Shown: positions 5,261-31,999, counted from the stretch's first letter. The stretch is DNA of 32,000 nucleotides from Halalkalibacterium halodurans (GCF_004376175.1 NZ_SNUY01000010.1:45485-77484); one strand, 5' to 3'. Translations and numbers: made by a program. The notes: generated from the letters alone by a model not told the origin.

Positions 5261-5644
5261 ATGGGACAGGTGCAAGCGACAACAGAGCTTTTTCAATGGT
5301 TAAATGAACAAACAGACCTTACAAGCTATCAGATCGATTTAGTGGATGGGTTTGTGTTTATGCTGAAAAGAATTAAACACCATGGCCATATTCGTTTAAC
5401 AGCACCGGATACGATTCACCCTCGTTTTTGGAAATGTCATGATCGGACATTTGGCTATCGGTTGATGAAAGGGAACAGAAGACGACCCGCTCATCTATAC
5501 AAGTTTTATTTTGATGTGGCAAAGGTGGAAGGGCTTCTTCACATTCACAAGCAATCCGTTAGCTTGTCAGACAAAGGGGTTCAATTTCTTACGTATTCCA
5601 AAGAAATACAATTAGATCGTTTGTGCCATCATATCTGGATATAA
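5261..5644 (+). CDS. hypothetical protein (127 aa)
   Basis: ORF ending at a strong terminator. I recognise no motif, and the RBS is weak (GGACGGAAAATAGG). Confidence 0.5.
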   Translation: MGQVQATTELFQWLNEQTDLTSYQIDLVDGFVFMLKRIKHHGHIRLTAPDTIHPRFWKCHDRTFGYRLMKGNRRRPAHLYKFYFDVAKVEGLLHIHKQSVSLSDKGVQFLTYSKEIQLDRLCHHIWI

Positions 5645-5678
5645 AAAAACTAGCTGGGTAACGCCAGCTAGTTTTTTT
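5643..5678. terminator. bidirectional rho-independent terminator between convergent genes
   Basis: aaaaaaaCTAGCTGG-gtaacg-CCAGCTAGttttttt is a perfect 8-bp core stem flanked by an A-run and a T-run. It lies between the 5261..5644 ORF (+) and serA (-). Confidence 0.8.
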
Positions 5679-5706
5679 ACAATAGGGACAAGCTTCATTG
5701 CTCGTG

Positions 5707-7329: not shown

Positions 7330-7444
7330 GTTAAACTCCACTCCTTAAATTAAGTATTCTCTCTTGATCGTCTGTCCTCTCTACCTTTAGCAGCAAGCAA
7401 TGGAATGATTTTGAAGCACATGCCCCCCTAACATCAAACTTTTT

Positions 7445-7720
7445 TGATAGTAAAAAAACCTTCTGCCCACACGACGACTGTCGTGAGGGGCGGAAGGTTC
7501 ATACCGCGGTGCCACCCTCATTCACACATACTTGTTGTCGCAGTATGTGCCTCAAGGAGATTTAACTACGTCTCCAAGGTAACGGATTAACCGGAGCGCT
7601 CCTACTTAAATGTTCAGAGCGTCAACTCAGAAGGGCTACGGAAATTGTAGAGCCAAGCTGGTTCACAGCAACCACCAGCTCTCTGGATTGGTCATCTACA
7701 TTCCTCATCTTCGTCATCGT
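7445..7720 (-). promoter_or_regulatory. T-box riboswitch leader controlling serA
   Basis: Read on the minus strand: CGATGACGAAGA...GAGGAATGTAG (GA/AGUA-like), an AGAGAGCTGG...GCTGTGAA distal region, the CCGTTA F-box and the T-box AATGAGGGTGGCACCGCGG (7504-7520). The terminator hairpin follows. Confidence 0.85.
7452..7499 (-). terminator. T-box attenuator (intrinsic terminator)
   Basis: On the minus strand, CCTTCCGCCC...GGGCAGAAGG (9 of 10 bp) is followed by a T7 run. Its 5' arm overlaps the T-box antiterminator sequence. Confidence 0.8.
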
Positions 7721-7832
7721 TTTTAAGCAAATGTGTTTTATAATTTTTTGATAACTTACCACAGGAGATGGACATTTGTCAATTAGGTACTGAAGATTTA
7801 CGGTGAGAAATATTGTGAAAAGAGGTGGTGAA

Positions 7833-8900
7833 ATGTTGAAACATGTTGTAGAAAAAGGGGAGACGCTAGCGAAAATTGCAAATCGCTACGGAGTTCGTGC
7901 GGTCGACCTTTTGGATAGCAATTCGTTTATTGCCCATGAACGATCTTACGTCTATCCGGGAACAGAACTTTTGATCCCAAAAAGCGTGAATTCAACATTT
8001 GCTGCAGGACCGTTCGAATGTTTGTATGAGTATGGATATACGGAGCTGCTGCTTGATCGGAATAGGCTAAAACAACAACGGGTTAAAGAATCGGTCATCG
8101 GCAAATCGGTCATGGGGAAGGAGATTGTCGCATTTGAAATAGGATCAGGAGAGATTCCGATTTTTTATTCAGGCGGTTGGCATGCGAACGAATGGCATAC
8201 AGCAAAATTTTTGATGACTTTTTTACAAACGTTAATCGAGGCGGAGGTGAGTAAAGCCGATTTGTTCGGCTATTCGGTTTACGAGTTGCTAAAAAAGGTG
8301 ACTCTCCATCTCGTGCCCCTCGTCAACCCTGATGGTGTCGAGCTTGTTCAGCAAGGAATCTACCCAGAACATCCTTTTTATGAACAGGTTCTTGCCATCA
8401 ATAAAGGTGCACGGACGTTTGATCATTGGTCGAGCAACATTCGCGGTGTCGATTTGAACCACCAGTGGCCAGCAGGGTGGGAGAAGGAGGCGGCGGAAAG
8501 TCCACAGCAGCCATGGCCGCGCCACTATAGCGGACCTTCGCCGCTGTCAGAACCAGAGGCGATCGCAATCTACGAGTATACGAAGGCAAATGACTTTGCG
8601 TATGTGCTTGCCTTTCATTCCCAAGGTCAAGAGATTTATTGGGGGTATAAAGGATTCGAGCCTAACGTTAGCAAAGCCATGGTGGAGCGCCTTTCACTTA
8701 TGAGCTCGTATAAACCGGTTCATACGGCGGATAGCGATGGGGGATACAAGGATTGGTTTATTCAAGAGACGAGAAGACCGGGATTTACAATTGAAGTGGG
8801 CGTAGGGAAAAATCCGCTTCCACTTGAGGCGTTCGGAGAGATTTGGTCTAACAACATTTTGCTCGCATTGGAAGGGCTCACCTTACACGAACTTATGTAA
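7833..8900 (+). CDS. LysM domain + M14 zinc carboxypeptidase-family peptidase (gamma-D-glutamyl-meso-diaminopimelate peptidase-like, YqgT-type)
   Basis: N-terminal LysM (VEKGETLAKIANRYGV), then M14-like motifs (GGWHANEWHT, NPDGVE, FHSQG). ATG 7833 follows GAGGTGGTGA. Confidence 0.85.
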   Translation: MLKHVVEKGETLAKIANRYGVRAVDLLDSNSFIAHERSYVYPGTELLIPKSVNSTFAAGPFECLYEYGYTELLLDRNRLKQQRVKESVIGKSVMGKEIVAFEIGSGEIPIFYSGGWHANEWHTAKFLMTFLQTLIEAEVSKADLFGYSVYELLKKVTLHLVPLVNPDGVELVQQGIYPEHPFYEQVLAINKGARTFDHWSSNIRGVDLNHQWPAGWEKEAAESPQQPWPRHYSGPSPLSEPEAIAIYEYTKANDFAYVLAFHSQGQEIYWGYKGFEPNVSKAMVERLSLMSSYKPVHTADSDGGYKDWFIQETRRPGFTIEVGVGKNPLPLEAFGEIWSNNILLALEGLTLHELM

Positions 8901-8918
8901 AGGCATAGTGAAAGAATG

Positions 8919-8950
8919 AAAAAGACTCGGGATAATCCCGAGCCTTTTTT
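8919..8950. terminator. bidirectional terminator (peptidase + / ppa -)
   Basis: CTCGGG-ataat-CCCGAG (8926-8942) is flanked by an A-run upstream and a T6 run downstream. Confidence 0.75.
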
Positions 8951-8957
8951 CCATATA

Positions 8958-9449
8958 TTATCCTTTATAACGAGCAAAGCACTCGTCAATTAATTTAGCG
9001 GCTGCTTCTGCATCTTCATACGCACCAACCTCTGTTTTCTTTCCTTCAAGGTCTTTGTACGTTTTGAAGAAGTGAGCGATTTCATCCAGCTTATGCTTGG
9101 GTAGATCGTTTAAAGAGTTCACATCTTTAAAACGAGGATCTTCTGTTGGAACGGCGATTAGTTTTTGATCCTCTTCACCACCGTCAATCATGTTTAAAAA
9201 TCCGAGTACTTTGGCATCAATAACGCAGCCCGGGAATGTTGGATTTGAGACAATGACAAGAACATCTAATGGATCGCCGTCAAGGGCTAGTGTGTTTTCA
9301 ATGTAGCCGTATTCTGCTGGATAGAACATTGGCGAAAAAAGAACACGATCCAATTTGAAAACGCCACGCTCTTTGTCATACTCGTATTTGTTTTGACTAC
9401 CAGTTGGAATTTCAATAAATGCTTCAATGACCTTTGGTTCGATTGCCAT
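8958..9449 (-). CDS. ppa: inorganic pyrophosphatase, family I
   Basis: Contains the family I PPase signatures IEIPTGSQNKYEYDKE..., YPAEYGYI and DGDPLDVLV. ATG 9449 lies 7 nt after GGGAGGA. Confidence 0.9.
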   Translation of the reverse strand: MAIEPKVIEAFIEIPTGSQNKYEYDKERGVFKLDRVLFSPMFYPAEYGYIENTLALDGDPLDVLVIVSNPTFPGCVIDAKVLGFLNMIDGGEEDQKLIAVPTEDPRFKDVNSLNDLPKHKLDEIAHFFKTYKDLEGKKTEVGAYEDAEAAAKLIDECFARYKG

Positions 9450-9520
9450 CTGAAGTCCTCCCTTGTTATGTATAAATGTAATCAACGTCCATTATAGCAA
9501 CTTCGAAAAAAGAAAGGAAG

Positions 9521-9550
9521 AAAAAAACGGCTCCACCGAAAAGGGCCGCT
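9521..9550 (-). terminator. terminator downstream of fer
   Basis: On the minus strand, a GCGGCC...GGAGCCG hairpin is followed by a T7 run (plus-strand A-run 9521-9527). Confidence 0.5.
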
Positions 9551-9565
9551 TTTTCTGCCAACGAT

Positions 9566-9841
<276 letters not shown>

Positions 9842-10092
9842 CTATCTCTTCTCTAACAGTTGTATGACAGAAAAGAAATGGATGTTTATATATTTTTAAC
9901 GGTCAGCTCGTTCGTTCCAGTAACTATTGTATCGGTGATGACAACAGTTTTCAACCGTTAAGTTTTTTTCGTATAACGGTTTGTCTTTAACTTGTCCAGA
10001 GAGAGTGAGCATTACCCCTCTTTTTCAGAGCATTGTCTGTTAAAATAAACGAAGAGCTGTGATCGGTAATTTCGGTGAAGGGAGAGGCGTTC

Positions 10093-11172
10093 ATGACGAA
10101 TCACGTAACAAAAGGTGTCATCTTACTGGCAATCGATCGGGTAAGGGGTGATCGCTCCATTTACGGCCTTTACCATTTATTGAACGGAAAACGATCAGCA
10201 CAAACGATTCAAGATGGACACTTATTTGGACTGCTTCCTTACTTCGGACTTCTTTCCCATCTATCGCGAACCGAGTTTGAGGAATTAATTGAGGAGTTAA
10301 AAAAGGATGATGCTCTCACGGTCAACGATAGGCGAGTGGTCGTGACAGCTAAGGGGAGAGAGGAGCTTGAAGAGTGGCGACATACACATACCTTTCTTCA
10401 CTATGTCGATGGATGGAGATGGAAGAATGAAACGAAAAAAGCTTGGATGTGTTTACAATTATGGTTGCAAGCCTTATCGAATCGTGTCGCAGGTGTAACG
10501 TTTTATCCTGTAACCTTAAATGAGGCCGTTCAACAATGGGTGAAGCGAACCATTCCTCACAGCCCACAAGCTCGCATCCAGCAATTAACACGATTGCATC
10601 ATGAACTCGTCGAGCTGTTGACGAAAATGGAGGAAGTGCAATGCGAAGTGCTCGTTCGCCAATTAAGCGGATCTACACAAATCGGCCAAACGTTGGAGCA
10701 AATCGCCTATGATCTAGGGCTCTCCCGATCTGATGCAGCTTTGATCCATACAGTATCGCTACAGCAAATTGGTTCGGTTGTTATAGAGAATCGTGAGTGT
10801 TATCCGCTGATCCAGTCGTTGTTTCAATCGGGAGAAGATTCGGGTAACGTGTTAACCAATTCAGCTCAGAAGACGTGGTCAATGTTCAGGCAAGGCTTAT
10901 CATTAGAGGGAATTGCAAAGGCTCGGCGATTAAAACGGAGCACGATTGAAGATCATTTTGTCGAAATTGCTCTACACGATGAGACGTTTTCGCTCAGGGC
11001 GTTTGTCCCGCGGGATTTGGAGCAAGAGATCATCCAAATTGCCAGAACGTTAAACACAAAAAAACTGAGGCCAATACGGGATCAGTTGACACAACCAGGT
11101 AGTTACTTTCAAATCCGATTAGTGCTTGTAAAAATGGAGGCTGTACATGAATTTGGAACAAGAATTACATAA
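10093..11172 (+). CDS. YpbB-like helix-turn-helix protein (RecS partner)
   Basis: It lies upstream of and overlaps the RecQ-family helicase gene, as ypbB-recS does in B. subtilis. ATG 10093 follows GGGAGAGG. The assignment rests mainly on position. Confidence 0.7.
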
Positions 11173-12622
11173 ATGGTTTGGATACCATTCGTTCCGCTCA
11201 GGACAAAAAGAAGTGATAGAAGCGCTAGTGGAGGGGAACGATGTGTTTGCGATGCTTCCGACAGGTACTGGGAAGTCCATTTGTTATCAATTACCGGCGC
11301 GAATAACAGAAGGGGTAACGCTCGTCATTTCACCACTGCTTTCACTAATGGAAGATCAAGTGCAGCAACTGAAATCGAACGGCTGGAAAGACGTGGCGGC
11401 GCTGAGTAGCTTTCTGTCAAAAGGAGCTAAGGAGCGAATTATTAAACAGCTTCATCTGTACAAGCTGTTGTTTCTCTCTCCTGAAATGGTGCAGCACCCT
11501 GTCGTTTTCAAGCGGTTAAAGCAAGTGAAGGTGTCGTATTTTGTTGTGGATGAAGCCCATTGTATTTCCCAATGGGGACATGATTTTCGTCCAGACTTCC
11601 TTCGCCTCTCAGACGTGAAACACCAGCTTGGGAATCCACCATGTTTGGCGTTGACAGCAACGGCTACCCCAGCTGTTCAGCAAGACATCTTAACCCAATT
11701 ATCGATTGATGAGGCAGTTACGATTGTTCATAGTGTGGACAGGCCAAACATATCCATTTCGGTAGAGCAAACACCGACCGTAAAGAATAAGCTTGAAGCA
11801 ATTCGGGGGATTATTGAGCGACATAGCGGGGCGGGGATTATTTATTTTTCAAGCCGTTTATGGAGTGAGCAAATCGCTAGGGAGCTTATGTTAAACGTCA
11901 AGAAACGAGTGGCCTTTTATCATGGGGGGATGAGCAACGAGGATCGAATCTTGATCCAACAGCAATTTATGGCGGGAGAGCTTGATTTGATTTGCAGTAC
12001 GAGTGCATTTGGAATGGGCATTAACAAGCAAGATATTCGCTTTGTGATTCATTACCATTACCCGCAGCAGATCGCCTCATATGTCCAGGAAATCGGTAGA
12101 GCCGGTCGTGATGGACTTGCGAGTAGCGCCTATGTGCTGTTTTCGGAGGAGGATAAGGGATTAGCTCGTTCGCTCATGACACATGATCACCCGTCAAAGG
12201 ATGAAATCATTCAAATGATTCAAGATTGTCAAACAACTGAAGTGCCTTCATATGGCGGGGATGTAGCGACGGCACACAGATTCGTCCGCTTCTTGCTTGA
12301 GAGGTTTAAGAAAAGGAACCGGACCGTTGATGATTTCGTATCCATTGTGGAATCCCACTTTCAACAGCGCGAGCGAATAAAGGCAAAAGAACTATACTTA
12401 GTCGAAGAATGGTTACAGACAAAGGAATGCCGCCGGGAAAGGCTTCTGTCATTTTTTTCAGAACAACTGACAAGCCGGCCTGTACGGTGCTGTGATAATT
12501 GTGGTTTAAAAGACCAGCCAGGTGAGCAAGCCTCTGCCATCATAGCAGTGGGTCAAACAGTGCCGCATTGGCGCGAGCGTCTAGCTTTATTGTGCCATCA
12601 ATCGAAAGGAGGGCGGGGATGA
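11147..12622 (+). CDS. recS: RecQ-family ATP-dependent DNA helicase (RecS-type, no HRDC)
   Basis: Has the helicase motifs [30 protein letters not shown] and [10 protein letters not shown], plus a C-terminal Cys cluster. The RBS GGAGG lies 6 nt before the ATG. Confidence 0.9.
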
Positions 12623-13209
12623 AGAGACAGCAACAGCTTATAAAACAGATGACAGACAGAGAGCTTTTAATAAATCTCTATCTTTCACAAACGTCCATGC
12701 TCGTCATTGCGTTCATATTAGGTTGGTGGTGGTTTGGAAGCTGGGACGCTTACATCGACATCCTTCGTTTCGAGCCGTTCAACATTTTCGTTCTCGGTGG
12801 CGGTGCAGCCGTTCTCGTTGTGACAGTCGACATTGTTTTATACCGATATGTTCCAAAAGAATGGATGGATGATGGGGGCATTAATGAGCGAGTGTTTCGC
12901 AACAGATCCACTTTCCACATTGCGTTTTTATCTCTCGTTGTTGCCGTTGCGGAAGAAACGTTATTCCGCGGCATCATTCAGCAACAGCTTGGTCTCGTGA
13001 TCGCAAGTCTCGTGTTCGCTCTCGTCCACTTTCGCTATTTACATAAGCCTATTTTGTTTATAAGCATCGTTGCGATCAGCTTTTTGCTAGGGGTTTTGTT
13101 TTTAGTGACAGGGAATTTACTCGTCACCATCTTTGCTCATTTTTGCATCGATTTTCTTCTCGGGATCTTCTTGCGAAATATGTTAAAATCATCTTCAAAT
13201 CGGGTATAA
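12619..13209 (+). CDS. CPBP (CAAX) family intramembrane protease, YpbD-like
   Basis: Multi-TM protein with the EETLFRG and HF/H motifs. Its ATG 12619 overlaps the recS stop (ATGA) and follows GGAGGGCGGGG. Confidence 0.85.
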
Positions 13210-13241
13210 CGTAGCCGATAATAACAATAGGGGGGATGATT

Positions 13242-13481
13242 ATGCCAGCACACGTGAATAACCAAGCAGAACATTTGCGGTATGAAGCTAAAGGCAGAAA
13301 CGTGGAAGAGTTGCCTGTTGCTAGCGAAAAGCTGCCTTCTCGGCTTGACGTGCATCGCCGTAAGCGAAGGAAGAAGAAAAAGGCGCTTAGCTTTCCACTC
13401 ATTCGGATCTTGCTCGTGTTTTTTTTCCTTATTGTCATTGGCGCCCTATTATCTCCGTTTTGGCTTGAATACATGTTATAA
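13242..13481 (+). CDS. small basic single-pass membrane protein
   Basis: It has a lysine/arginine cluster (HRRKRRKKKK) followed by one TM segment. The RBS AGGGGGGA lies 6 nt upstream. It occupies the position of ypbE but is far too short to carry a LysM domain. Confidence 0.5.
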   Translation: MPAHVNNQAEHLRYEAKGRNVEELPVASEKLPSRLDVHRRKRRKKKKALSFPLIRILLVFFFLIVIGALLSPFWLEYML

Positions 13482-13540
13482 AAGTTAGTTCTTTAAGCCC
13501 CTCTTCGTTCATATATCAGATAATGAAGGGGGACTGAAGC

Positions 13541-13990
13541 ATGGGCGGTAAAGGAGCAACTCTGTTCATAAAAAATCGAGTGACCGATGTGACATATGTT
13601 ATGATTGAAGAGCTAATTGTCCGTAAAGAAAAATGGGATAAGCTCGAAAAACAGCTTCGATTTTGGTCTGTGCTCGGACTAGCGTTCTTGTTACTAGGCA
13701 TCATCCATGTCATCGTCCTTACTACAAGCACGCACACCACATATTTATTGCAGTTCATTAGTGGCAATCAGACGTTTTTATTCGTGTTGTTAGGTGTGGC
13801 CCTTTCGTTCTTTCAAATGCAATTCGTTCATAAAAAAGCTGAAAAGGCGGAAACGGAATATGAAGAGCTTCGCAAGGAACTTGTGGAACGCTCGGTCGAA
13901 CTATGGGATACGGAACCTTTGTGGCAAAAGCGAAATGAGACGTTCCAACACTTAAAGGATACATTTGATATTAATTTATATTATAAATAA
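13541..13990 (+). CDS. membrane protein, YpbF-like by position
   Basis: 149 aa with two central TM segments. The RBS GAAGGGGGA precedes it and a terminator follows directly. Confidence 0.55.
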   Translation: MGGKGATLFIKNRVTDVTYVMIEELIVRKEKWDKLEKQLRFWSVLGLAFLLLGIIHVIVLTTSTHTTYLLQFISGNQTFLFVLLGVALSFFQMQFVHKKAEKAETEYEELRKELVERSVELWDTEPLWQKRNETFQHLKDTFDINLYYK

Positions 13991-14000
13991 CAGCAAAAAA

Positions 14001-14027
14001 GCCTGATCGACAACATCAGGCTTTCTT
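14001..14027. terminator. rho-independent terminator
   Basis: aaaaaaGCCTGAT-cgacaac-ATCAGGCtttcttt. It also overlaps the 3' end of the minus-strand ORF. Confidence 0.7.
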
Positions 14028-14252
14028 TAGTGAAGGGGTGGTTACAGGCTGACCAAAGAACAAGCATTGATCGCGGGAAAAGGTTTGGTCATTTACTTGA
14101 ACGTACTCTTCGCTATATGCTTGTATCCGACCAAAGGCGAGTGTGTGCAAACGTTGAAGGCAGACAACTTCAATCGGCAATCCGATCGTTCGGTTAAAGT
14201 GGAGGTCCGCATTTGTCACGAGTGATTTTTCCAATCGTTTCGTTGTGAACAA
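14016..14252 (-). CDS. hypothetical small protein (about 78 aa)
   Basis: Minus-strand ORF. TTG 14252 lies 8 nt after AAGGAAGG, whereas the track's GTG 14261 abuts the SD. I recognise no motif. Confidence 0.35.
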   Translation of the reverse strand: MFTTKRLEKSLVTNADLHFNRTIGLPIEVVCLQRLHTLAFGRIQAYSEEYVQVNDQTFSRDQCLFFGQPVTTPSLKKA

Positions 14253-14562
14253 ATAAGTCACCTTCCTTTTTCTGTTTTTTTAAATGATAACCAACACGAG
14301 CATTTAAACATAAGTTGTTTCATTTATTTGGACATATCATGTTTTATGAGAGATGGATCGAAAGAAATGTTAACGGTTTCATAATTAAAATTATACAATG
14401 AATGGAAATGAATTTCAATAAGTTTCTGAAAATTCTTGGTTAGAATTAGAAGTAAATGAATGTCTTATAATTGTCACAAAATGATCACATGAAAAGCCTT
14501 TGTTCATGTTAAGCTACAAGATAAGGAAACGTTTTAAAAAGATATGGGAGTGGATCAAGAGA

Positions 14563-14673
14563 ATGATGACAGCAGGGCAATTAGGTGCAATTATTGGCAT
14601 TGGTTTTTTAGCAATGGGAATTGCAGTGTTAATGGCATATTCTCTCTACAAATTCTCAAATATGTCAGATTAA
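14563..14673 (+). CDS. unannotated 36-aa hydrophobic peptide (MMTAGQLGAIIGIGFLAMGIAVLMAYSLYKFSNMSD)
   Basis: My own translation; it falls below the ORF-track cutoff. It has one predicted TM helix and sits in an AT-rich intergenic region. A very strong terminator follows 8 nt after the stop. The SD is only weak (GGGAG 12 nt upstream, or AAGAGA). Confidence 0.4.
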   Translation: MMTAGQLGAIIGIGFLAMGIAVLMAYSLYKFSNMSD

Positions 14674-14680
14674 TTTACTA

Positions 14681-14713
14681 GGCTGGTACTCATAAAGAGG
14701 TACCAGCCTTTTT
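14681..14713 (+). terminator. strong rho-independent terminator
   Basis: GGCTGGTAC-tcataaagag-GTACCAGCC is a perfect 9-bp stem followed by TTTTT. Confidence 0.8.
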
Positions 14714-14764
14714 CGTATATAATCATAACTAGAGTACTTACAGCACATCTTGGGGGGATGGACG

Positions 14765-15154
14765 TTGCTCGTTTTTGTTTATGGGACGCTTCGCAAAGGA
14801 GGAGCCAACGATCATTATTTGCGCGGAGCCCGGTGTCACAATCGGCGTTGCTATGTATATGGTCACTTGTATGATTCAGGGCTCGGCTATCCAGCACTTA
14901 TAGCCGATGAAAAAGGGGGAAAGGTGGTTGGTGAACTTTATGAGATTAATGAACAGCATTTAGTTTCCCTTGATGAATTGGAGGATTATGCTCCAGATCG
15001 GAATCATAACTTGTACGAGCGGGTCTTACATACACTAGAAGACGGTAGCCATTGTTATTTATATGTAGTTACTCCTGACTCGCCCCTTGTGCGCACATTG
15101 ATTCCTTCGGGGGATTGGCTTGACTGGACGGAAAACAAAAAATCAACCGAATAA
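14765..15154 (+). CDS. gamma-glutamylcyclotransferase (GGACT/AIG2-like) family protein
   Basis: The N-terminal LVFVYGTLRKGGANDHYL and the later GELY..., LDELEDY fit the family. In-frame TTG 14765 lies 6 nt after GGGGGGA. Confidence 0.85.
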   Translation: MLVFVYGTLRKGGANDHYLRGARCHNRRCYVYGHLYDSGLGYPALIADEKGGKVVGELYEINEQHLVSLDELEDYAPDRNHNLYERVLHTLEDGSHCYLYVVTPDSPLVRTLIPSGDWLDWTENKKSTE

Positions 15155-15215
15155 ACAGACTTTTCTTTTATTTACAGGAGCGTTACACTAGAAGAAAAAG
15201 ATGGAGGGGATTCAG

Positions 15216-16430
15216 ATGCTTGAAGCCGTATTGAAAAAAGTGGACGCTTATTTTGACGAATTGGTTGACATTCGGCGGACACTTCATAAACATCCTGAGT
15301 TATCATTTGAAGAAGTAAAAACACCTGCCTTCATCGCAGATTATTTAGAAAAGCTTGGTGTCAATGTTCGTCGCGGCGTAGGAGGCCGAGGCGTTGTTGG
15401 CACGATTAAAGGTGGAAAGCCTGGTCCAACGGTGGCGTTACGAGCTGATTTTGATGCCCTTCCGATCCAAGAGGAAACAGGTCTTCCTTACCAATCAACT
15501 GTTCCTGGAGTTATGCATGCGTGCGGGCACGATGGTCATACGGCCACCCTTCTCATCATTGCAAAAATTTTAATGGAGCACCGTCAACAGTTGGAAGGAA
15601 GTGTTGTCCTTATCCACCAATTTGCCGAAGAGCTTGCCCCAGGGGGTGCGATTGCCATGATTGAAGATGGTTGCCTCGATGGGGTGGACGTCATTTACGG
15701 CACACACTTATGGGCGACGATGCCCGTTGGCGAAATCGGGTATCGAAGCGGGGCATTCATGGCAGCAGCGGATAAATTTGCAGTGACGATTTACGGAAAA
15801 GGAGGACATGGAGCAGCACCTCACGAGACGGTCGATGCGGTGACGGTGGGTGCTTCGGTCGTCCAGCAATTGCAGCAAATTGTCAGTAGAAATGTCGACC
15901 CGTTAGAATCGGCTGTTGTAACCGTTGCGTCATTCCAAGCAGGCGGGCCATTTAACGTCATTGCTGATAAGGCAAACCTTGTTGGAACGGTTCGTACGTT
16001 TAAAGAAGACATTCAAGATATGATCATTGAACGAATGGAGCGCACGATTAAAGGTGTTTGTGATGCTGCAGGGGCTACATATGCCTTCGCTTATGATAAA
16101 GGCTATCCAGCGGTGATCAATCATCCGAAAGAAACAGACGACCTTAAGAATGCGGCGGTGGCAGTTGTCGGGGAAGAACATGTAGCTGAAATGGCTCCGG
16201 TTATGGGCGGCGAGGATTTTGCCTATTACCTTCATCATGTGCCAGGGGCCTTTTTCTTTACAGGTGCAGGAAATGAGGATGAAGGGATTATTTACCCTCA
16301 CCATCATCCGAAATTTATGATCGATGAACGATCGTTAGCGATTGCGGCCAAAACATTACTGACGGCTACGCTATCATATAGTCAAAAGGACGCTTCAGCT
16401 CATGAGCCATCTGCCACATCTGATCGCTAA
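15216..16430 (+). CDS. M20D family amidohydrolase (N-acyl-L-amino acid amidohydrolase type)
   Basis: Contains RRTLHKHPELSFEE, ALRADFDALP, MHACGHDGH and GGEDFAYY, typical of YxeP/AmhX/HipO-like enzymes. ATG 15216 lies 6 nt after GGAGGGG. Confidence 0.9.
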   Translation: MLEAVLKKVDAYFDELVDIRRTLHKHPELSFEEVKTPAFIADYLEKLGVNVRRGVGGRGVVGTIKGGKPGPTVALRADFDALPIQEETGLPYQSTVPGVMHACGHDGHTATLLIIAKILMEHRQQLEGSVVLIHQFAEELAPGGAIAMIEDGCLDGVDVIYGTHLWATMPVGEIGYRSGAFMAAADKFAVTIYGKGGHGAAPHETVDAVTVGASVVQQLQQIVSRNVDPLESAVVTVASFQAGGPFNVIADKANLVGTVRTFKEDIQDMIIERMERTIKGVCDAAGATYAFAYDKGYPAVINHPKETDDLKNAAVAVVGEEHVAEMAPVMGGEDFAYYLHHVPGAFFFTGAGNEDEGIIYPHHHPKFMIDERSLAIAAKTLLTATLSYSQKDASAHEPSATSDR

Positions 16431-24602: not shown

Positions 24603-25571
24603 ATGGAACAAGAACAGGTGATTATTGTCGGTGGTGGTCCGTGCGGGTTGGCAGCAGCGATTGCGTTACAAAATGAAGGTCTCAAGCCTCTTGTTATTGA
24701 AAAGGACAACATTGTGAGCGCAATCCATCGTTATCCGACCCATCAAACGTTTTTTAGTACGAGTGAAAAGCTCGAAATTGGGCAAGTACCGTTTTTAACA
24801 GAAGAGCGAAAGCCAAAGCGAAGCCAAGCTCTCGTCTATTATCGAGAAGTGGTCAAACGAAAGCAGATTCGTGTCAATCCATTTGAGCGAGTCACGAAGG
24901 TGACGAAGCAAGAGGACGGGACATTCTATGTAGTAACATCAAAGCGAACATATCACTGCAAGCAAGTGGTCATTGCCACAGGTTATTATGATCATCCCAA
25001 TTCACTAGGTGTCCCAGGGGAAGATCTTCCCCATGTTTTTCACTATTTTAAAGAGGCGCACCCTTACTTTGACCAGGACGTTGTCGTGATCGGCGGGAAA
25101 AACTCCGCGGTTGACGCAGCCCTTGAATTGGAGAAGGCAGGAGCAAGAGTAACGGTCCTATATCGTGGAGACACGTACTCAGATAGTGTCAAGCCATGGA
25201 TTTTACCGGAATTTGTTTCTCTTGTAAACCACGACAAAGTAAAGATGGTGTTTCGTGCACAAGTGAAGCGAATCACAGCTTCGGAAGTGGAGTATGAGAC
25301 CCAGGGTGAGAGGAAAGCGGCAAGAGCCGATTTCGTGTTTGCCATGATTGGCTACCATCCGGACCACAACTTTCTGAAAACGATGGGTGTTGCTATCGAT
25401 CACGATACAGGTCGTCCCATTCACGACCCAGAAACGATGGAAACTAACGTGGAAGGGATTTTTATCGCAGGTGTTATTGCTGCAGGAAATAACGCTAACG
25501 AGATATTTATTGAAAATGGCAGATTTCACGGAGAAATGTTCGCAAAACTGATTCGGGAACGAGTGGAGTAA
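24603..25571 (+). CDS. ypdA: YpdA-family FAD-dependent oxidoreductase (putative bacillithiol disulfide reductase)
   Basis: VIIVGGGPCGLAAA, YPTHQTFFSTSEKLEIG, VVVIGGKNSAVDAALEL and IAGVIAAGNNANEIFIENGRFHG are collinear with B. subtilis YpdA as I recall it. ATG 24603 lies 8 nt after GGTGA. Confidence 0.85.
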   Translation: MEQEQVIIVGGGPCGLAAAIALQNEGLKPLVIEKDNIVSAIHRYPTHQTFFSTSEKLEIGQVPFLTEERKPKRSQALVYYREVVKRKQIRVNPFERVTKVTKQEDGTFYVVTSKRTYHCKQVVIATGYYDHPNSLGVPGEDLPHVFHYFKEAHPYFDQDVVVIGGKNSAVDAALELEKAGARVTVLYRGDTYSDSVKPWILPEFVSLVNHDKVKMVFRAQVKRITASEVEYETQGERKAARADFVFAMIGYHPDHNFLKTMGVAIDHDTGRPIHDPETMETNVEGIFIAGVIAAGNNANEIFIENGRFHGEMFAKLIRERVE

Positions 25572-25666
25572 AGAGCTGGGTACTCTGTAAGATTAAGTAC
25601 AAGTAATTGTACATTAAGTCTTATTTAACAGTGTTTTATTTATAATGTTACACATTAAATAAAAAT

Positions 25667-25715
25667 GCACATTACTAAAAACAAATTTTAGTGATGTGCT
25701 TTTTATTTTTATTAA
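25667..25715 (+). terminator. strong rho-independent terminator inside the junction region
   Basis: GCACATTACTAAAA-acaaa-TTTTAGTGATGTGC is a 14-bp stem with one G-U pair, followed by TTTTTATTTTTATT. Confidence 0.75.
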
Positions 25716-25749
25716 CTCTTAAATATAAATTTATTAAAAGGTTAAACAT

Positions 25750-25778
25750 TTTACAATTACTAAGAAAAATATTAATAT
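25750..25778 (+). promoter_or_regulatory. candidate sigma-A-type promoter for the first recombinase gene
   Basis: TTTACA, a 17-nt spacer, then TAATAT, ending 34 nt upstream of the TTG start at 25812. Confidence 0.45.
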
Positions 25779-25811
25779 AAGAACATACATTCCTATCGAG
25801 GGGGAGAATAA

Positions 25812-27152
25812 TTGTATTGGTTTAAGTATTGTCCGAAGCATGTTGAAAGTAAATATCAGTTACTTGTATTTAAAGATAACCTGCCCTTTATTCCTTTGAC
25901 AGACTATTATCATGATTGTTTAGGGAGAATTGATAAAAGCTCTGCAATATCATATATGAATTGTTTGTTACCATTTTTTAAATGGTTAGATAAAGAAAGT
26001 AATTATCAAGGAAACCAAGTACAATGGAATGATTCAGAAGAGAAAATACGTGTTGTAGTTGAAGATTATTTGATGAATGAAATGAAGTGTAAGATTCGTG
26101 ATAAAGATACCTTTCTTTTTGTAAATTTAACTAATAAAAGTCCTAACACAGTTAGTCGATTTTTATCAGCATTAAAATCATTTTACAAATCAATGATCAG
26201 GTTAAAACAGTATCACTATAGTAATCCATTAATAGATGGTCAGGCTATCCTACATAGCTACAAAGAGGAGATAAAGGGTGTGCGAGAAGGTAAATCAAGA
26301 ATGCCTTCAATCGCTGGTACAGAAGAAGCTATTCCTCATCGAAGATTAACAGATTCCTATTTTAAAATTATCAATGAAGAATGGCAACCACAGATTATTG
26401 ATGATATAGATTTACCATATCAAATATATCAAGCTGGTAAAAAAGCAAATTGGTCACTCCGTGAAATGGTAATAGCCCGTATGCTATTTGAAACAGGCGC
26501 AAGGGCAACAGAAATTATTGAGTTAACACTAGGGGATTACCGTAAACGTAAAAGTCATCAAGAATTTATTACCTTCAATAAAGGAAGTCATGGTAGAAAA
26601 ATCAAGTTTATACGTGTTAGCAAAGATACGGTAAAAAGGTTGTTTCATTACATAGATACTGAAAGAAAATCCTTTGACGAAAATCATTTAAATTTTGATC
26701 AATTACCTGATGATGCTTCTATCTTTTTATCAGTAAACGGAACGCCTCTTACTTATCACGCTTGGTACTACCACTGGAATCGAGCAATGAAGATAAATGA
26801 TTTAAGTTTAAATCCACATAAAGCAAGGCATTGGTTCGTTACTTCTCGATTAAGAGAAATTTATAACGTTTCAAAAAATGAAACAGAAATACATCAACGA
26901 AAAAATGAGTTGATCAAATATATGAAGTGGAAAAATCCCGATACGATAAATGTGTATGAACATCATTTTGATGAAACGAGACATCGAGAAGCACATGAGA
27001 AAATGTTAGATCAAATGCAACAAAACGAAAAGGGCTATGTTAAACGACAGGAAACTTCGAGGAAATCAAAGCAAAAGTTGAGTGTTGTTAAATCATTAGG
27101 TATCGAAGACTTTGATGAAGATTTAAAAGAATTATTAGAAGGGTTGGAGTAA
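25812..27152 (+). CDS. tyrosine recombinase, Tn554 TnpA-like (446 aa)
   Basis: Catalytic signature visible: ETGARATE (Arg I), HKARHWF (H-x-x-R), INVYEHH (Tyr). An N-terminal SAM-like core-binding motif (KSPNTVSRFLSALKSFYKSM) is present. TTG start lies 7 nt after GGGGGAG. Confidence 0.8.
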   Translation: MYWFKYCPKHVESKYQLLVFKDNLPFIPLTDYYHDCLGRIDKSSAISYMNCLLPFFKWLDKESNYQGNQVQWNDSEEKIRVVVEDYLMNEMKCKIRDKDTFLFVNLTNKSPNTVSRFLSALKSFYKSMIRLKQYHYSNPLIDGQAILHSYKEEIKGVREGKSRMPSIAGTEEAIPHRRLTDSYFKIINEEWQPQIIDDIDLPYQIYQAGKKANWSLREMVIARMLFETGARATEIIELTLGDYRKRKSHQEFITFNKGSHGRKIKFIRVSKDTVKRLFHYIDTERKSFDENHLNFDQLPDDASIFLSVNGTPLTYHAWYYHWNRAMKINDLSLNPHKARHWFVTSRLREIYNVSKNETEIHQRKNELIKYMKWKNPDTINVYEHHFDETRHREAHEKMLDQMQQNEKGYVKRQETSRKSKQKLSVVKSLGIEDFDEDLKELLEGLE

Positions 27153-27154
27153 AA

Positions 27155-29296
27155 TTGACTGAAACATCTGATGTCAGACCTGTTACAGCTTGGTATGATG
27201 AATGGTCTAGAAAAGTAGATTCTAACCTATTATGCATGCAAAACAGCCGAGGAGAATATTTAATTGATAAAGTAAATGAACGAAACTTAACACATTTAAA
27301 TTCAACTTGTATAGATAAAATTTGGTTCCCACAATTATTATTAATTACACTTATTGAAGCTGATAGAAATAAAGATGTGGGATCAATAAGTGTTCAGAAT
27401 ACTGCTTTAAATAATAGATTTAGCGATATTTTTAATGAACTTAAGATTGCTTCATGGTCAGATTTTAATCCAAATCAACATATGTATATGTATTTAAAAG
27501 CCGAGATTTATCCAGAACATACTAATAATCAACGGAGGAGATTGTTTGAGTACTATAAGACATGTTTGTACAATACCCAAAAATGGATTAATACTACATT
27601 ATCAATTGATAAACAAACAAATTATAAGCAATTTTTATTACCATCAATCCATTTTGATTCAAGAGATTTCTCCTTAAGTAAATTAGCCAGGGAAGAAGCC
27701 CAAAATACTCGAAAAGATGAAACAGACGCTATTGTACCACATCTTTCAACAATACGTGTAGAAGCAAATCTACGATGGAATCAAATAAAAAGACTAAAAG
27801 ATGCATTTCAGCAACAAATAAGAATTGTAGAAACCGATTCATTATCATTACCAATTGAATTTTCTTATGAGGAACCAAAACGTATTGGAGAAGTATTTCA
27901 TTTTCGCTTATGGGATAAACCTTCCTTTGTACTGAAGCACCAAAAGGAGTTTTCAGATGCCGTTGTAAAACTGGCAAAACAAAAAAAAGCAAATTATTCT
28001 GATGAAAATAATGCCTACTTCCTTGAATTTATTCGTGCTGAGTCTGTAGATAGTGATTCAGAACCAGAAGGACTTTGGTTTAATGATTTAATTGAGCAGA
28101 ATGTTTTAGGAAGTTGGCCAAAAACCAAACCAGTTGAAGAACATAAGAAGATTCTTAATTTCTTGTCCACTTGGGGCTACGAGGCTGAAAATGGGAAAAA
28201 GCCCGTTCCATTTTTTTCAGGTCATAAAGGTATAATAACACCTTCAACATTTGTTTCTTTACACAAGGATAAAGCAGAGGGCTTATTAATAGATGTAGAA
28301 CCATTCTATGTAGCTTGTACATTTGGATTATTAGCCATCGACATTTTAACAACAACAGGTGCAAGAAAGAACGAATTACTTCAAATTAGTAATACGAAAG
28401 AATGTATTCAAGTAAAGAAAATTAATAACAAGCTACATTATTCCTTTAGAGCTATTCCTAAAGGAAGAGATTCATTAGAAGAATTTTATATAAGTAAACA
28501 AACGATGGAATATATTCAAATTGTATCAAGGATGTTAAAAGCACATTGTGACAGTGATAAAATTCCAAGCGTCATATACAGAGATAAAAGAAAACATTTA
28601 TTTCCTACACCTATGCCCTATTATTTTCAATATGCAGATAGAGCATTAAGGGATGTTACTTTATATAGTTCCATTCGATTTTTACTTCATGGATTAGTAT
28701 TTGAGATGCAAGATGGAAAAGCTGTAACTATAAAAACACACCTATTACGTCATGCATTTGCGACAGAAGCTGTTCAACGTCAAAAAATGCCGATTGATAT
28801 TGTCGCAAAAATGTTGCATCAAAAAGATTTAAACGTAACAGCGTATTATTCAGCTCCTACACCTACCCAAATCTCAGAATCAGTAAGTGAATTACATGAC
28901 GTTATTTCAAGTTATGTAGATATTGATGATGTATATATAAGAAGTCCACAAGAGTTAAAAAAAGAATTTGATGCCTACGCAGAAAAAGTGGGTGTATTTA
29001 ATAAAGTGTTAGGTGGTACTTGTGTGACAGATTACATTTGTCCTACTAAAATGCAATGTTTAGGCTGCCAAGCAAAAATACCCGAACCAGATCAAGAGGA
29101 TGAATTATTAGAGGTCATTCAATTATCAAAAGATATGGAAAAACGATTTAAACAAATGGGATTAGATGTTGAAGTTCGGAAGGCTAAAGAAATGGCAAAG
29201 CAAGCTAGAATTGAATTAAAAGAGATTGAGTTAATCAAACAATATAGGGAGGAACGTCAATATGAACCAAAAGCAAGAAATAATCCATTCAGATAA
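27155..29296 (+). CDS. large tyrosine recombinase, Tn554 TnpB-like (713 aa)
   Basis: Contains TTGARKNE (Arg I), HLLRHAFATE (H-x-x-R) and TAYYSAP (Tyr). It has a long N-terminal region with no recognised motif and a C-terminal Cys4 cluster plus charged tail. TTG start lies 2 nt after the upstream stop, preceded by GGAG. Confidence 0.8.
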   Translation: MTETSDVRPVTAWYDEWSRKVDSNLLCMQNSRGEYLIDKVNERNLTHLNSTCIDKIWFPQLLLITLIEADRNKDVGSISVQNTALNNRFSDIFNELKIASWSDFNPNQHMYMYLKAEIYPEHTNNQRRRLFEYYKTCLYNTQKWINTTLSIDKQTNYKQFLLPSIHFDSRDFSLSKLAREEAQNTRKDETDAIVPHLSTIRVEANLRWNQIKRLKDAFQQQIRIVETDSLSLPIEFSYEEPKRIGEVFHFRLWDKPSFVLKHQKEFSDAVVKLAKQKKANYSDENNAYFLEFIRAESVDSDSEPEGLWFNDLIEQNVLGSWPKTKPVEEHKKILNFLSTWGYEAENGKKPVPFFSGHKGIITPSTFVSLHKDKAEGLLIDVEPFYVACTFGLLAIDILTTTGARKNELLQISNTKECIQVKKINNKLHYSFRAIPKGRDSLEEFYISKQTMEYIQIVSRMLKAHCDSDKIPSVIYRDKRKHLFPTPMPYYFQYADRALRDVTLYSSIRFLLHGLVFEMQDGKAVTIKTHLLRHAFATEAVQRQKMPIDIVAKMLHQKDLNVTAYYSAPTPTQISESVSELHDVISSYVDIDDVYIRSPQELKKEFDAYAEKVGVFNKVLGGTCVTDYICPTKMQCLGCQAKIPEPDQEDELLEVIQLSKDMEKRFKQMGLDVEVRKAKEMAKQARIELKEIELIKQYREERQYEPKARNNPFR

Positions 29297-29606
29297 GAAA
29301 AAGTGGCTTGAAAAAGTTCATCAGCAACGTAAAGAACGTTCCATATCTATTGGTATTCAAACGATTGATTTTCTTGTCAAACAAGGGATTCCTGTAACCT
29401 ATCATAACATTAGAGAGCATTCAAAAGCATTTGATGATAAAGAGAAAGGTATTCATTTAAATACTATTAAACGAAATGAAGAATTATATGAGTATTACAA
29501 AAAACATAGTAGAACTTATAAAGTAAAGAATGCTCGTAAAAAGCTAGCGAATCCTACTCCATATGACGAGTCAACTTTAAGAAGAATTTCACCTAACCGA
29601 GACTCC
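29262..29606 (+). pseudogene. TnpC-like small basic protein gene, 3' end cut by IS21-family insertion
   Basis: ATG follows GGGAGGA and overlaps the tnpB-like end by 35 nt. The native reading frame runs to codon 115. From 29607 the frame reads into the IS terminal repeat, so the last 40 aa of track ORF 29262..29729 are IS-derived. Confidence 0.55.
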
Positions 29607-29667
29607 TGTATTTTGCAAGCAAAAAGTTTAGAAGAATGCAATGAAAAGTTTAGAACTTTGCCAGCCC
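29607..29667. repeat. IS21-family terminal inverted repeat (istB-proximal end) with two internal direct repeats
   Basis: TGTATTTTGCAAGCAAAAAGTTTAGAAGAATGCAATGAAAAGTTTAGAACTTTGCCAGCCC. Confidence 0.75.
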
Positions 29668-29682
29668 TTACTTTCTTTCTAA

Positions 29683-30405
29683 TTAGCGATTCGATAATGC
29701 ATGTTTCACACGGTAACTATCGCCAGTAAAACTTAAAATATGTGCGTGATGTATCACTCGATCCACCAAGGCAGCGGTGAGCCGTGCATCCACAAATATT
29801 TTATTCCACTGACTAAATTCTAAATTGGACGTAATAATAAGGCTTTTCTGTTCATACCAATCGGAAATCAATTGAAATAATAACTCAGCTCCATCCTTAC
29901 TAAATGGCACGTATCCCATCTCATCAAGAATGATCATATCGACTTTATTGAATCGGTTACGTAATAGTTGATATCGGCCTTCTGCCCAGGACTTTTCCAA
30001 AAGGTCTATTAAATCAGCTACCCGGTAGAAACGGACCTCATATCCGTTTCTACAAGCCTTACGACCCAATGCTGTTGCCAAATGGGATTTCCCAGTTCCT
30101 GGCGCTCCGGATAGAATGACATTCTCTTTTCTCTTGATAAATGAAAGGGACTCCAGACCATCTCTGTCGAGATTTGTTGGGAAATGAATATGTTCGCCCC
30201 AACGATAATCATCTAGTTCCTTTTCATTCATGAATTTTGCCTTTTTAATTAGGCGTTCTCCTTTTGCTATTTCCCTTAACTCTATTTCTTGTTGTAGTAA
30301 ATCTATCAAGTATTGTTCTGGATTCTCGAAAGGAACCTTCTCGTACATGTCGGCTACATATGCTAAACGAAGCAATTTACATTTCTCTCTAATCGCATCA
30401 GTCAT
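29683..30405 (-). CDS. istB: IS21-family helper ATPase IstB
   Basis: Has Walker A (GAPGTGKSHLA) and Walker B (MIILDEMGY). ATG 30405 follows AAGGAGGG and overlaps the istA stop by 8 nt. Confidence 0.92.
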   Translation of the reverse strand: MTDAIREKCKLLRLAYVADMYEKVPFENPEQYLIDLLQQEIELREIAKGERLIKKAKFMNEKELDDYRWGEHIHFPTNLDRDGLESLSFIKRKENVILSGAPGTGKSHLATALGRKACRNGYEVRFYRVADLIDLLEKSWAEGRYQLLRNRFNKVDMIILDEMGYVPFSKDGAELLFQLISDWYEQKSLIITSNLEFSQWNKIFVDARLTAALVDRVIHHAHILSFTGDSYRVKHALSNR

Positions 30406-31861
30406 GATATACACCCTCCTTAACGGTAGGCTGGAGGGAGTCATAAATACTCCAATTTACATCATAAGGATGGTTCGTAGAATCATCCAGACTCGCATCA
30501 AACTGTTTTTCTTCTGGTAGTAACTCATAGAAGCGTTCGTCTATTTCTTGCATATCATGATTTACAATTAAGCTTAGTAACCACTCTACACGTTCTTTTC
30601 TTAATTTCATTGATTCAATGTTTAAGTAATAAGAAATTCTGCCGGGCAGGTAGGGGAAATACCGAGAATATACAATGGATCGTGGCTTCTGTTTCCAATT
30701 TTTTAAGATGGATTGCCACGGAATTTCCCTTGTTTGATTCATATACCGTCTAGGTCCTTTGGAGAGCACTTCACCGTTGCGGGTGACGACTTTATAGTGA
30801 TCCCAATATAAAATCAAATGCAGTTTACCGTAATGGTAACTTGTAGGCACATGGACCAGCACTCCATCAACCTTTACTTCACCATATTTATTAGCGGTTA
30901 CCATTGATTGCTTAAATACCGGATACTCGGACTCAGGTAAAGCTAGTCCATAATTCTTTTCCTCTTCAAACAGATCTGCAATTAAGATATCCTTCTTATA
31001 ATGGAGGCGTTGTTGATCCCTTTTACTCTGGTCAAATAACAAAGCACGTAAGTGTGTTAAATCTTTGATCACAGGAGAAGGAGTGAAAAAGTTATAACGT
31101 ACATATCCCACTTTGTTTTCGACATGTCCTTTTTCATTTCCTTTTCTTGCATTACAGGCTTGCGGCTCAAATCCATAATGGCTGGCAAAGCGAAGAAACT
31201 CTTCATTGAAAACAGTTTCTTCCCCACGCCCCCTTGCCTTTACTACTGCTGCTGAAAGGTTATCTAACCGAAGTTTCCTTGGAACGAATCCCGATTGTTT
31301 AAAGAGTATTTTAAGACCTTCTAAAAAGCACTCCTGGTTTTCTGCAGGCAGAGGAACGGTAAAACCTGCGTTACTATATGGAAAACTCATCACTAGTGCA
31401 TGGATGTCCTTTGCTTGTCCATCTTCAATTGCCTCGGTAATGCCAAAATCTATTTGGGCTTCGGCGGGAGGATGGGTTAGCCTTTCATATTCCTCTTTCA
31501 ATTCATCCGATTCATCTAATACTTTTTCTTTCCATTCTTCTTTAATGAAGTTACAAACGGTTCGATAAGAACCGGTAAACCCTAATTTCTGTAACCCTTC
31601 AAATATATTTTTATTGTTTCTTCTCGATTTCTTTTTGAGGGCATAATCTTCAACGAGCCAGTCAATTACAATTTCTCCCCACTTTTCTTCATACATCATG
31701 CCTTTTTTCTCAAGAATCTTTTCTGTAGGTAATTGATCATCATCCGCATATTTTTTAACTGTTACCCAACTAAAACCAGTACGTTTGGAGATTTCATTGA
31801 TCGATAGGGATTTTATATTCCTTAACTTTTTGATATGATTGATTTCAGGCATTGCTAGCAT
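30398..31861 (-). CDS. istA: IS21-family transposase IstA
   Basis: 487 aa with an N-terminal HTH (SINEISKRTGFSWVTVKKY), then a DDE-type catalytic region. ATG 31861 lies 7 nt after GGGAGGA. Confidence 0.92.
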   Translation of the reverse strand: MLAMPEINHIKKLRNIKSLSINEISKRTGFSWVTVKKYADDDQLPTEKILEKKGMMYEEKWGEIVIDWLVEDYALKKKSRRNNKNIFEGLQKLGFTGSYRTVCNFIKEEWKEKVLDESDELKEEYERLTHPPAEAQIDFGITEAIEDGQAKDIHALVMSFPYSNAGFTVPLPAENQECFLEGLKILFKQSGFVPRKLRLDNLSAAVVKARGRGEETVFNEEFLRFASHYGFEPQACNARKGNEKGHVENKVGYVRYNFFTPSPVIKDLTHLRALLFDQSKRDQQRLHYKKDILIADLFEEEKNYGLALPESEYPVFKQSMVTANKYGEVKVDGVLVHVPTSYHYGKLHLILYWDHYKVVTRNGEVLSKGPRRYMNQTREIPWQSILKNWKQKPRSIVYSRYFPYLPGRISYYLNIESMKLRKERVEWLLSLIVNHDMQEIDERFYELLPEEKQFDASLDDSTNHPYDVNWSIYDSLQPTVKEGVYHD

Positions 31862-31919
31862 CCTTTCATCCTCCCACCATTAGTTGATTAGACACCAATA
31901 ACGGTAGGGTATTTTGAGA

Positions 31920-31999
31920 GGGCTGGCAAGCCTTTTCTATTTGTGCAACCTTCTAACATTTTGGTTGCAATACTCTTAACTTTTATTTTGCACTAAACA
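31920..31999. repeat. IS21-family terminal inverted repeat (istA-proximal end) with three internal repeats
   Basis: The reverse complement reads TGTTTAGTGCAAAATAAAAGTTAAGAGTATTGCAACCAAAATGTTAGAAGGTTGCACAAATAGAAAAGGCTTGCCAGCCC, which aligns with the other end. Confidence 0.75.

Follow-up and report, generated by a model that had tools for sequence, protein, structure and literature searches.

A two-recombinase gene trio in Halalkalibacterium halodurans and the probable targeting of terminator hairpins by its transposon family

The island behind ypdA

Directly downstream of ypdA, in a stretch of 32,000 nucleotides (nt) from Halalkalibacterium halodurans (GCF_004376175.1, NZ_SNUY01000010.1:45485-77484; the window, with positions counted from its first letter and features on the + strand unless stated), lies an AT-rich island of three tightly packed genes, two of which encode tyrosine recombinases. 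We conclude, with a probability of about 75%, that this island is the left ~4 kilobases (kb) of a Bacillales-wide transposon that has the trio as its core, possesses fixed ends, inserts at the edge of hairpin loops without duplicating its target, and moves by a mechanism that we infer to be recombinase driven.

The host gene upstream of the insertion, ypdA (24603-25571), belongs to the bacillithiol-disulfide reductase family (TIGR04018, 1e-142), and its exact product of 322 amino acids (aa) is present in other H. halodurans genomes. The island itself spans 25581-29606 (4,026 base pairs, bp) and has a G+C fraction of 0.312, and of 0.208 in its non-coding left end, against 0.442 for the host DNA at 1-25580. 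An earlier note on this DNA had put the contrast, by hand counting, at 25-30% against 45-55%; the contrast is real but smaller. It had also placed the switch in composition within a few bases of the ypdA stop codon; the exact junction is 25580/25581, 9 nt past the stop, and the segment in between (25572-25580) is host terminator DNA. As the empty sites described below reveal, this segment, AGAGCTGGG, is the 5' arm of a bidirectional terminator that serves both ypdA and the asparaginase gene converging on it, and the insertion has parted this arm from the loop and the 3' arm.

The first open reading frame (ORF1; 25812-27152) starts with TTG and encodes a short tyrosine recombinase of 446 aa, which hhalign pairs with TnpA of the transposon Tn554. 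ORF2 (27155-29296) encodes a long tyrosine recombinase of 713 aa, paired in the same way with TnpB. ORF3 (29262-29606) comprises the first ~115 codons of a truncated small basic protein, as judged by alignment to a full-length homologue of 157 aa (locus L001), to which similarity is lost past residue ~114; it is the probable TnpC counterpart, and domain searches found no recombinase domain in it. The coordinates bear out the layout given in the earlier note, with a gap of 2 nt between ORF1 and ORF2 and an overlap of 35 nt between ORF2 and ORF3, and the motifs it listed (ETGARATE, HKARHWF and VYEHH in ORF1; TTGARKNE, HLLRHAFAT and TAYY in ORF2) are present in the translations. The window is part of a draft contig, and its proteins match records TES56376-TES56381, from an assembly that also holds TES56390 (locus tags E2L07_); database records name the genes of this family only "site-specific integrase" or "hypothetical protein".

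Against the Pfam hidden Markov model PF00589, ORF1 scores 1.7e-9 (38 bits), which exceeds the gathering score, and ORF2 scores 7e-5 (23 bits), which falls under it. In the family alignment, R231, H336, R339, W373 and Y382 of ORF1 are invariant, as are R404, K436, H529, R532, H555 and Y565 of ORF2. Judged by these residues, both are catalytically complete tyrosine recombinases that keep the R-K-H-R-H/W-Y set, and their identification as recombinases stands. ORF2 also has an N-terminal region of ~390 aa and a C-terminal tail with four invariant cysteines (C623, C629, C635 and C638). The description of these proteins as unusually large, with extra regions of ~80 aa, does not hold within their own family, in which sizes of 446, 713 and 157 aa are the conserved norm. 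Nor does the island end at 29606, as had been supposed; at that point ORF3 is interrupted by an IS21-family insertion sequence (29607-31999), to which we return below.

Ends of the element and its target hairpins

We compared 46 genomic loci, together with plasmid loci, and found the trio in the same order in every complete locus; strains with an intact trio include Lysinibacillus sp. RC46, L. sphaericus G25-62 and Sporosarcina thermotolerans CCUG 53480. Similarity between the window and its closest relatives begins within a few bases of 25581, and exactly there in about ten loci. The left flanks are unrelated among the 14 relatives compared at this point, and the closest relatives all have in common the left end TACTCTGTAA[G/T]ATTAA.... 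The tip of the left end in the window is TACTCTGTAAG (25581-25591), a conserved motif that persists in members down to ~50% protein identity. At the other end, among the loci in which the family motif ...CTTGACTTTTAATAAAA was found downstream, the 17 longest have it once each, and from left end to right-end motif these 17 elements measure 4.66-10.99 kb.

The exact YpdA protein is found on many H. halodurans contigs, and all four of the distinct contexts returned (L002-L005) are without the island. This supports the earlier note's reading of the island as a mobile element, one acquired horizontally. The empty site reads taa-AGAGCTGGGC-TTGGT-GCCCAGCTCC-TTTATTT, followed by the convergent asparaginase gene, and folds at -12.3 kcal/mol. 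Because the window departs from this sequence after AGAGCTGGG, comparison with these island-free genomes defines the left junction at 25580/25581. The island is thus inserted 1 bp below the loop of the ypdA/asparaginase bidirectional terminator hairpin, which has 11 pairs and a 5-nt loop (offset 1).

Pre-insertion sites were then rebuilt for 19 loci by joining their flanks, the right junctions being located through the reverse complement of the left flanks. In 11 loci the right flank consists of 6-7 nt followed by the reverse complement of the left flank. Fourteen of the 19 rebuilt sites fold with z <= -4 relative to shuffled sequences, and two more fold less strongly, at z -2.6 and -1.4; in the folded sites, the insertion point lies at the 5' loop edge or 1-2 pairs below it. 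A stem of at least 9 bp ending 0-2 nt from the insertion point is present at 13/19 sites; by comparison, 0.37% of 9,500 positions drawn at random from these flanks qualify. From the insertion point it is 5-7 nt to the 3' arm, and stems range from 7 to 26 bp. Neither stems nor loops share a common sequence, most being flanked by A and T runs, and at least 17 different hairpins are represented; the family therefore targets many different terminator hairpins, and the 3' flank of ypdA is not its insertion site as such. A gene stop codon falls within ~65 nt of an element end in 14/19 loci, on either side and in either orientation.

The flanks of these 19 relatives contain no direct repeat at the junctions, implying that insertion in the relatives causes no target duplication. 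In every case the left end adjoins the stem and the right end is followed by the 5-7 nt loop, an arrangement that, by the symmetry of a palindrome, amounts to a single strand-specific joining geometry. The 5-7 nt between right end and 3' arm are most simply read as the original loops; in the H. halodurans empty site, a loop of 5 nt falls in that register.

The ends have further structure. Written at greater length, the left end is TACTCTGTAAG-ATTAAGTACAAG... and the right end ...CTTGACTTTTAAT-AAAA. The subterminal repeat ATTAAGTACAAG (25592-25603), an imperfect inverted copy of the right-end CTTGACTTTTAAT, is presumably an arm of the core site bound by the recombinases; when the left ends of 19 complete relatives were set against the reverse complements of their right ends, an imperfect inverted pair of ~12 nt emerged, ATTAAAGACAAG on the left and CTTGACTTTTAAT on the right. 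Farther inside, about 60 nt from each end in the family, is a palindromic box, AATGTTACACATT (AATGT-N3-ACATT; 25644-25656), which relatives have again at ~55-70 nt from their right end and which is presumed to be a site for an accessory protein. We considered and rejected the TATAATGTTRCACATT box as a direct or inverted terminal repeat: the box is itself the palindrome AATGT-N3-ACATT, so its orientation is uninformative. Also rejected was a cargo-less unit of 4.2 kb ending at the ORF3 stop codon; conserved blocks lie downstream of ORF3 at differing distances among relatives, and these blocks, like the search for complements of the left flanks and the motif of the right end, place the right end 0.5-7.4 kb farther on.

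Inside the left end, a terminator scan identified a terminator-like hairpin of 14 pairs followed by a T run (25667-25709; hairpin 25667-25699). The hairpin is kept in 12 relatives, with a compensatory change from GCAC/GTGC to GTAC/GTAC in two loci (L021 and L001), and an Rfam scan of the left end matched no family. Such an internal terminator would replace the split host terminator and block read-through from ypdA. A promoter-like TTTACA-17-TAATAT (25750-25778), identified by consensus scan only, precedes ORF1 and is followed by the ribosome-binding site GAGGGGG; this ribosome-binding site and the TTG start are conserved in the alignment of relatives. If the two ends were joined without extra bases, TTGACT of the right end and TAAGAT/TAATAT of the left end (window 25581-25597) would stand 17 nt apart, possibly forming a junction promoter present only in a circular intermediate.

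A model for insertion and its competitors

These observations suggest a model in which the two recombinases would excise the element as a circle, in which the right-left junction would serve as the core site, its two binding arms being inverted. For integration, a hairpin would be recognised by its shape and cut at the 5' base of its loop; the substrate might be single-stranded and folded, or extruded as a cruciform, a situation known from integron attC sites and the CTX phage. Recognition of hairpin shape would explain why the junctions are independent of sequence and strictly one-sided, and the terminator inside the left end would restore termination for the upstream host gene. More tentatively, and at clearly less than even odds, the elements may form an undescribed class of transposon, in which a heteromeric recombinase pair finds any terminator hairpin by DNA shape, cuts the 5' base of its loop on folded single-stranded DNA or a cruciform, completes the reaction by single-strand exchange and replication as integrons do, brings its own replacement terminator so that insertion is silent, and ferries defence and accessory cassettes among Bacillales genomes and plasmids.

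If true, structure-guided, sequence-independent insertion at terminators would add a new principle to the ways in which tyrosine recombinases choose their targets. The full-text literature searched, which covers few subscription journals and may thus have missed an earlier report, contained no account of tyrosine-recombinase transposons that target terminator hairpins. A simple geometric rule that can be read from genomes opens the mechanism of two-recombinase transposons to experiment, and the family suggests a natural "safe-harbour" logic of integration.

Several points weigh against this model. The single-strand or cruciform step is deduced from geometry alone, and excision, circles and transposition are predictions from sequence. 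The right end, right junction and cargo of the H. halodurans copy lie beyond the window. Three of the 19 rebuilt sites (L016, L029 and L036) have a weak hairpin or none. With one empty site known, the right junction may instead hold a 6-bp footprint brought along from the left flank of the donor, in the style of Tn554. Selection could enrich survivors in harmless terminators. Finally, the AlphaFold2 model of ORF2 is poor (pLDDT 63.5) and bad in the catalytic half, and Foldseek returned no significant match for it, the non-significant ones being topoisomerase IB, IntI (2a3v), Cre and Tn1549.

The competitor that survives best, though we consider it unlikely, is that the target is read as duplex DNA, without folding: the recombinases would recognise an inverted repeat with a spacer of 6-7 bp, make staggered cuts on both strands and resolve the product with a strand bias. 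The distance of 5-7 nt from insertion point to 3' arm is indeed that of a typical tyrosine-recombinase overlap, both proteins have full catalytic sets, and strand-biased two-recombinase elements exist (PMC10214605). Yet the arms differ completely in sequence from site to site, with stems of 7-26 bp, so that readout of their bases by a protein is improbable.

Less likely again is that the island belongs to the Tn554 family proper and uses one attachment site defined by sequence. Tn554 integrates at att554 in radC, with the core GATGTA. Elements of this type are regarded as narrow in host range and limited to a single site, and their mechanism as unresolved (PMC10214605). An annotated reference element of this family, retrieved with a TnpA probe, has tnpA (361 aa), tnpB (630 aa), tnpC (125 aa), spc and ermA and adjoins a radC-type gene, and the protein sizes that the earlier note had given for Tn554 match it. 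Several features are shared with the family (Tn554, Tn558, Tn6674, Tn553 and Tn6188, from Staphylococcus, Enterococcus and Listeria): a short recombinase, a long recombinase and a small protein of Tn554-like sizes in the same order and orientation, cargo past the third gene, no target duplication, and a Cys-rich tail on the long recombinase, which in ORF2 aligns to that of TnpB.

Homology to the Tn554 proteins, however, is remote. BLASTP finds 23% identity between ORF1 and TnpA across 149 aa, and the hhalign probability is 91% (285 columns); for ORF2 and TnpB the values are 24% across 178 aa and 84%, the aligned region including the Cys-rich tail behind the tyrosine, which is the sole likeness to TnpB past the generic fold. 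The match of ORF3 to TnpC is weak (BLASTP E = 0.06; hhalign 3% probability) and amounts to no direct detection; a weak indirect link is that Tn554 TnpC matches Pfam DUF6262 at 8e-15 and, in the ORF3 family, only the enterobacterial member does so, at 0.0012, below the cut-off. The recombinases of the element are ~85 aa longer and much further from PF00589, at 38 and 23 bits against 160 and 159 bits for Tn554. A tblastn search of plasmids with ORF1 and ORF2 (1e-3 / 1e-5) did not reach any Tn554 copy of staphylococci or enterococci, of which at least 60 records are in the collection. The target also differs, being the loop edge of many diverse hairpins rather than att554 in radC, and the cargo of the relatives is mostly not antibiotic resistance. 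The earlier comparison with a Tn554-like module is therefore sound for gene order and for the cargo that follows the third gene in relatives, but homology is only remote and the target is not one site. In layout, and probably in chemistry too, the element operates as Tn554 does, and it is best filed as a separate, divergent lineage of two-recombinase (Tn554-type) transposons with its own proteins, conserved ends and structure-guided insertion into terminator hairpins.

It is very improbable that insertion is untargeted, or merely prefers AT-rich DNA, and that the link with hairpins is survivor bias. Terminators do sit in dispensable intergenic DNA where insertions are harmless, only fixed insertions are observed, and 3/19 sites have poor hairpins. 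Against this, at 13-16/19 sites only 0-2 nt separate the left end from the stem top and the 3' arm follows 5-7 nt on, versus 0.4% of random flanking positions, and the loop is invariably on the right-end side; selection for harmless sites cannot account for registration to the single nucleotide. That the island is a remnant of a prophage, of an integrative conjugative or mobilisable element, or of a chromosomal Xer-type pair is scarcely credible: the best curated models for ORF1 are XerC and XerD (1e-13, well under cut-off) and records carry "site-specific integrase" labels, but complete relatives are 4.7-11 kb units of trio and small cargo, their scanned cargo ORFs include no phage, conjugation or relaxase genes, several copies can occupy one genome, some copies are on plasmids, and other H. 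halodurans strains lack the element.

Other systems resemble the element in part. Van Houdt et al. (2012) described "Tn554-like" pairs in Actinobacteria and on one Bacillus cereus plasmid, without ends or target (PMC3414803). In these pairs, too, one recombinase is abnormally long and its partner shorter, and a third gene resembling tnpC is often present; ORF2 has weak matches (21-26% over the catalytic half) to Rhodococcus, Streptomyces, Mycobacterium and Arthrobacter plasmids, and the lineage differs. Another system is a trio on enterobacterial plasmids (445, 977 and 150 aa) that is homologous to ORF1-3 at 29, 26 and 32% identity (E 6e-49, 4e-51 and 1e-11) and has a toxin-antitoxin pair and CBASS as cargo after its third gene; it differs in lying inside umuC rather than in a hairpin, in a long recombinase with an additional 260 aa, and in its ends. 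One example, on a K. pneumoniae IncL/M pOXA-48-type plasmid (NZ_CP092591.1, ~5310-16410), splits umuC and carries a toxin-antitoxin pair, CBASS (NucC, Cap6, Cap7 and a cyclase) and an HTH/ImmA pair; the same element is found on many Enterobacteriaceae plasmids.

The SEs/GInts (PMC10214605) also combine an ordinary and a large RHRY recombinase with a small TnpC/Srap-like protein, and are non-conjugative and strand biased. Compared by description, they have four core genes, including the catalytically dead Tfp/GinC, whereas complete loci of the element have three, and they use few, sequence-defined targets with a 6-bp footprint. RIT elements differ in having three recombinases in a row and long terminal inverted repeats; ORF3 is no recombinase and the ends of the element are imperfect repeats of ~12 nt. 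The closest mechanistic analogy, and it is only that, is with the integron integrase at folded attC sites and XerCD at the folded CTX-phage site, in which a hairpin recognised by structure undergoes single-strand exchange in one orientation; those systems employ a single IntI or the host Xer pair, and the hairpin is on the mobile partner, not in the chromosomal target. Class C group II introns, IS200/IS605 and IS1397-type elements also favour safe places to land, namely intrinsic terminators or extragenic palindromes. They do so with entirely different enzymes, namely a reverse transcriptase with a ribozyme, HUH transposases or DDE transposases.

The interrupting insertion sequence, cargo and spread

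The element that interrupts ORF3 at codon ~115 is a 2,393-bp member of the IS21 family on the - strand (29607-31999), with istA (30398-31861, -; record name "IS21 family transposase"), istB (29683-30405, -; IstB_IS21 7e-65; record name IstB) and terminal inverted repeats that begin with TGT (TGTATTTTGCAAG... and TGTTTAGTGCAAA...). It has 38% G+C and ends 1 nt before the end of the window, so its target duplication is not visible here. Identical IstA proteins occur on further H. halodurans contigs and in unrelated sequencing runs, and the insertion sequence therefore appears to be active in this species. Because it truncates ORF3, the H. halodurans copy of the transposon is probably disabled and immobile. 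Beyond the insertion sequence, a 4-8 bp duplicate of ...GAGACTCC would be expected, followed by the last ~43 codons of ORF3 and, optionally, cargo. For the right end of this copy the model predicts ...CTTGACTTTTAATAAAA, then directly CTTGGTGCCCAGCTCCTTTATTTG and the asparaginase gene; it thus requires CTTGGTGCCCAGCTCC and that gene after ...CTTGACTTTTAATAAAA in the source contig.

Homologues of ORF2, of ~710 aa, number in the hundreds and are found in Lysinibacillus, Sporosarcina, the Bacillus cereus group, Brevibacillus and others. A search of 1.8 billion representatives with an ORF2 profile returned 728 matches at E<=1e-3 and 218 clusters (50% identity) at E<=1e-30, counts that indicate a specific lineage rather than generic integrases. 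The ORF1 cluster at >=90% identity spans Halalkalibacterium, Lysinibacillus, Kurthia, Psychrobacillus, Paenibacillus and B. cereus, and copies 99.9% identical are present in different hosts; together these imply recent spread.

Between ORF3 and the right end, relatives carry 0.5-7 kb of variable cargo, which differs even between close relatives. Two loci, L014 and L019, have cREC_REC and Abi_C genes accompanied by either a short-chain dehydrogenase gene or a kinase-like one; L021 has a STAND NTPase and an 883-aa ATPase matching the defence protein Ppl (2e-40); L001 has an 855-aa helicase matching the candidate system PDC-S28 (3.5e-282); L015 has DinB and a GTPase; L016 and L023 have MFS transporters; and L020 has almost none. 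The family therefore points to an overlooked vehicle for defence systems. The two-gene cassette of a cREC_REC receiver and Abi_C (L014 12674-14006; L019 12671-13995) is missing at the same point in L011 and has no PADLOC match; it could be an uncharacterised defence pair. L011, the window's closest relative, comes from a contig that stops short of the right end, and ~900 nt downstream of its ORF3 it has a reverse transcriptase ORF of 603 aa (13497-15308; RVT_1, group II intron type).

Some individual loci depart from the common arrangement. The 99.9% identical copies L017, L018 and L020 come from Jeotgalicoccus aerolatus and two metagenome-assembled genomes. The left flank of L018 is that of L020 and its right flank that of L017, and both L017 and L018 break 284 nt past ORF3, beside a near-repeat of the L017 left flank (ATAA.AAACCACC); this break may reflect a chimeric assembly or a secondary rearrangement. 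In L030, a 688-bp segment (11651-12338) comprising the 3' end of ORF2 and the 5' end of ORF3 is inverted relative to all relatives, either by the recombinases or through an assembly error. On a B. toyonensis chromosome (L028, 9527-13492), the order is ORF3-ORF2-ORF1 on one strand with exactly abutting coordinates, which may be a rearrangement or an artefact. Finally, a subfamily at 38% identity lies directly upstream of a yolD-like gene on pBsph of L. sphaericus C3-41 (L060, 10589-14566), where no umuC fragments were found nearby; its left end, TGTAAGATTAA..., resembles the family consensus in part.

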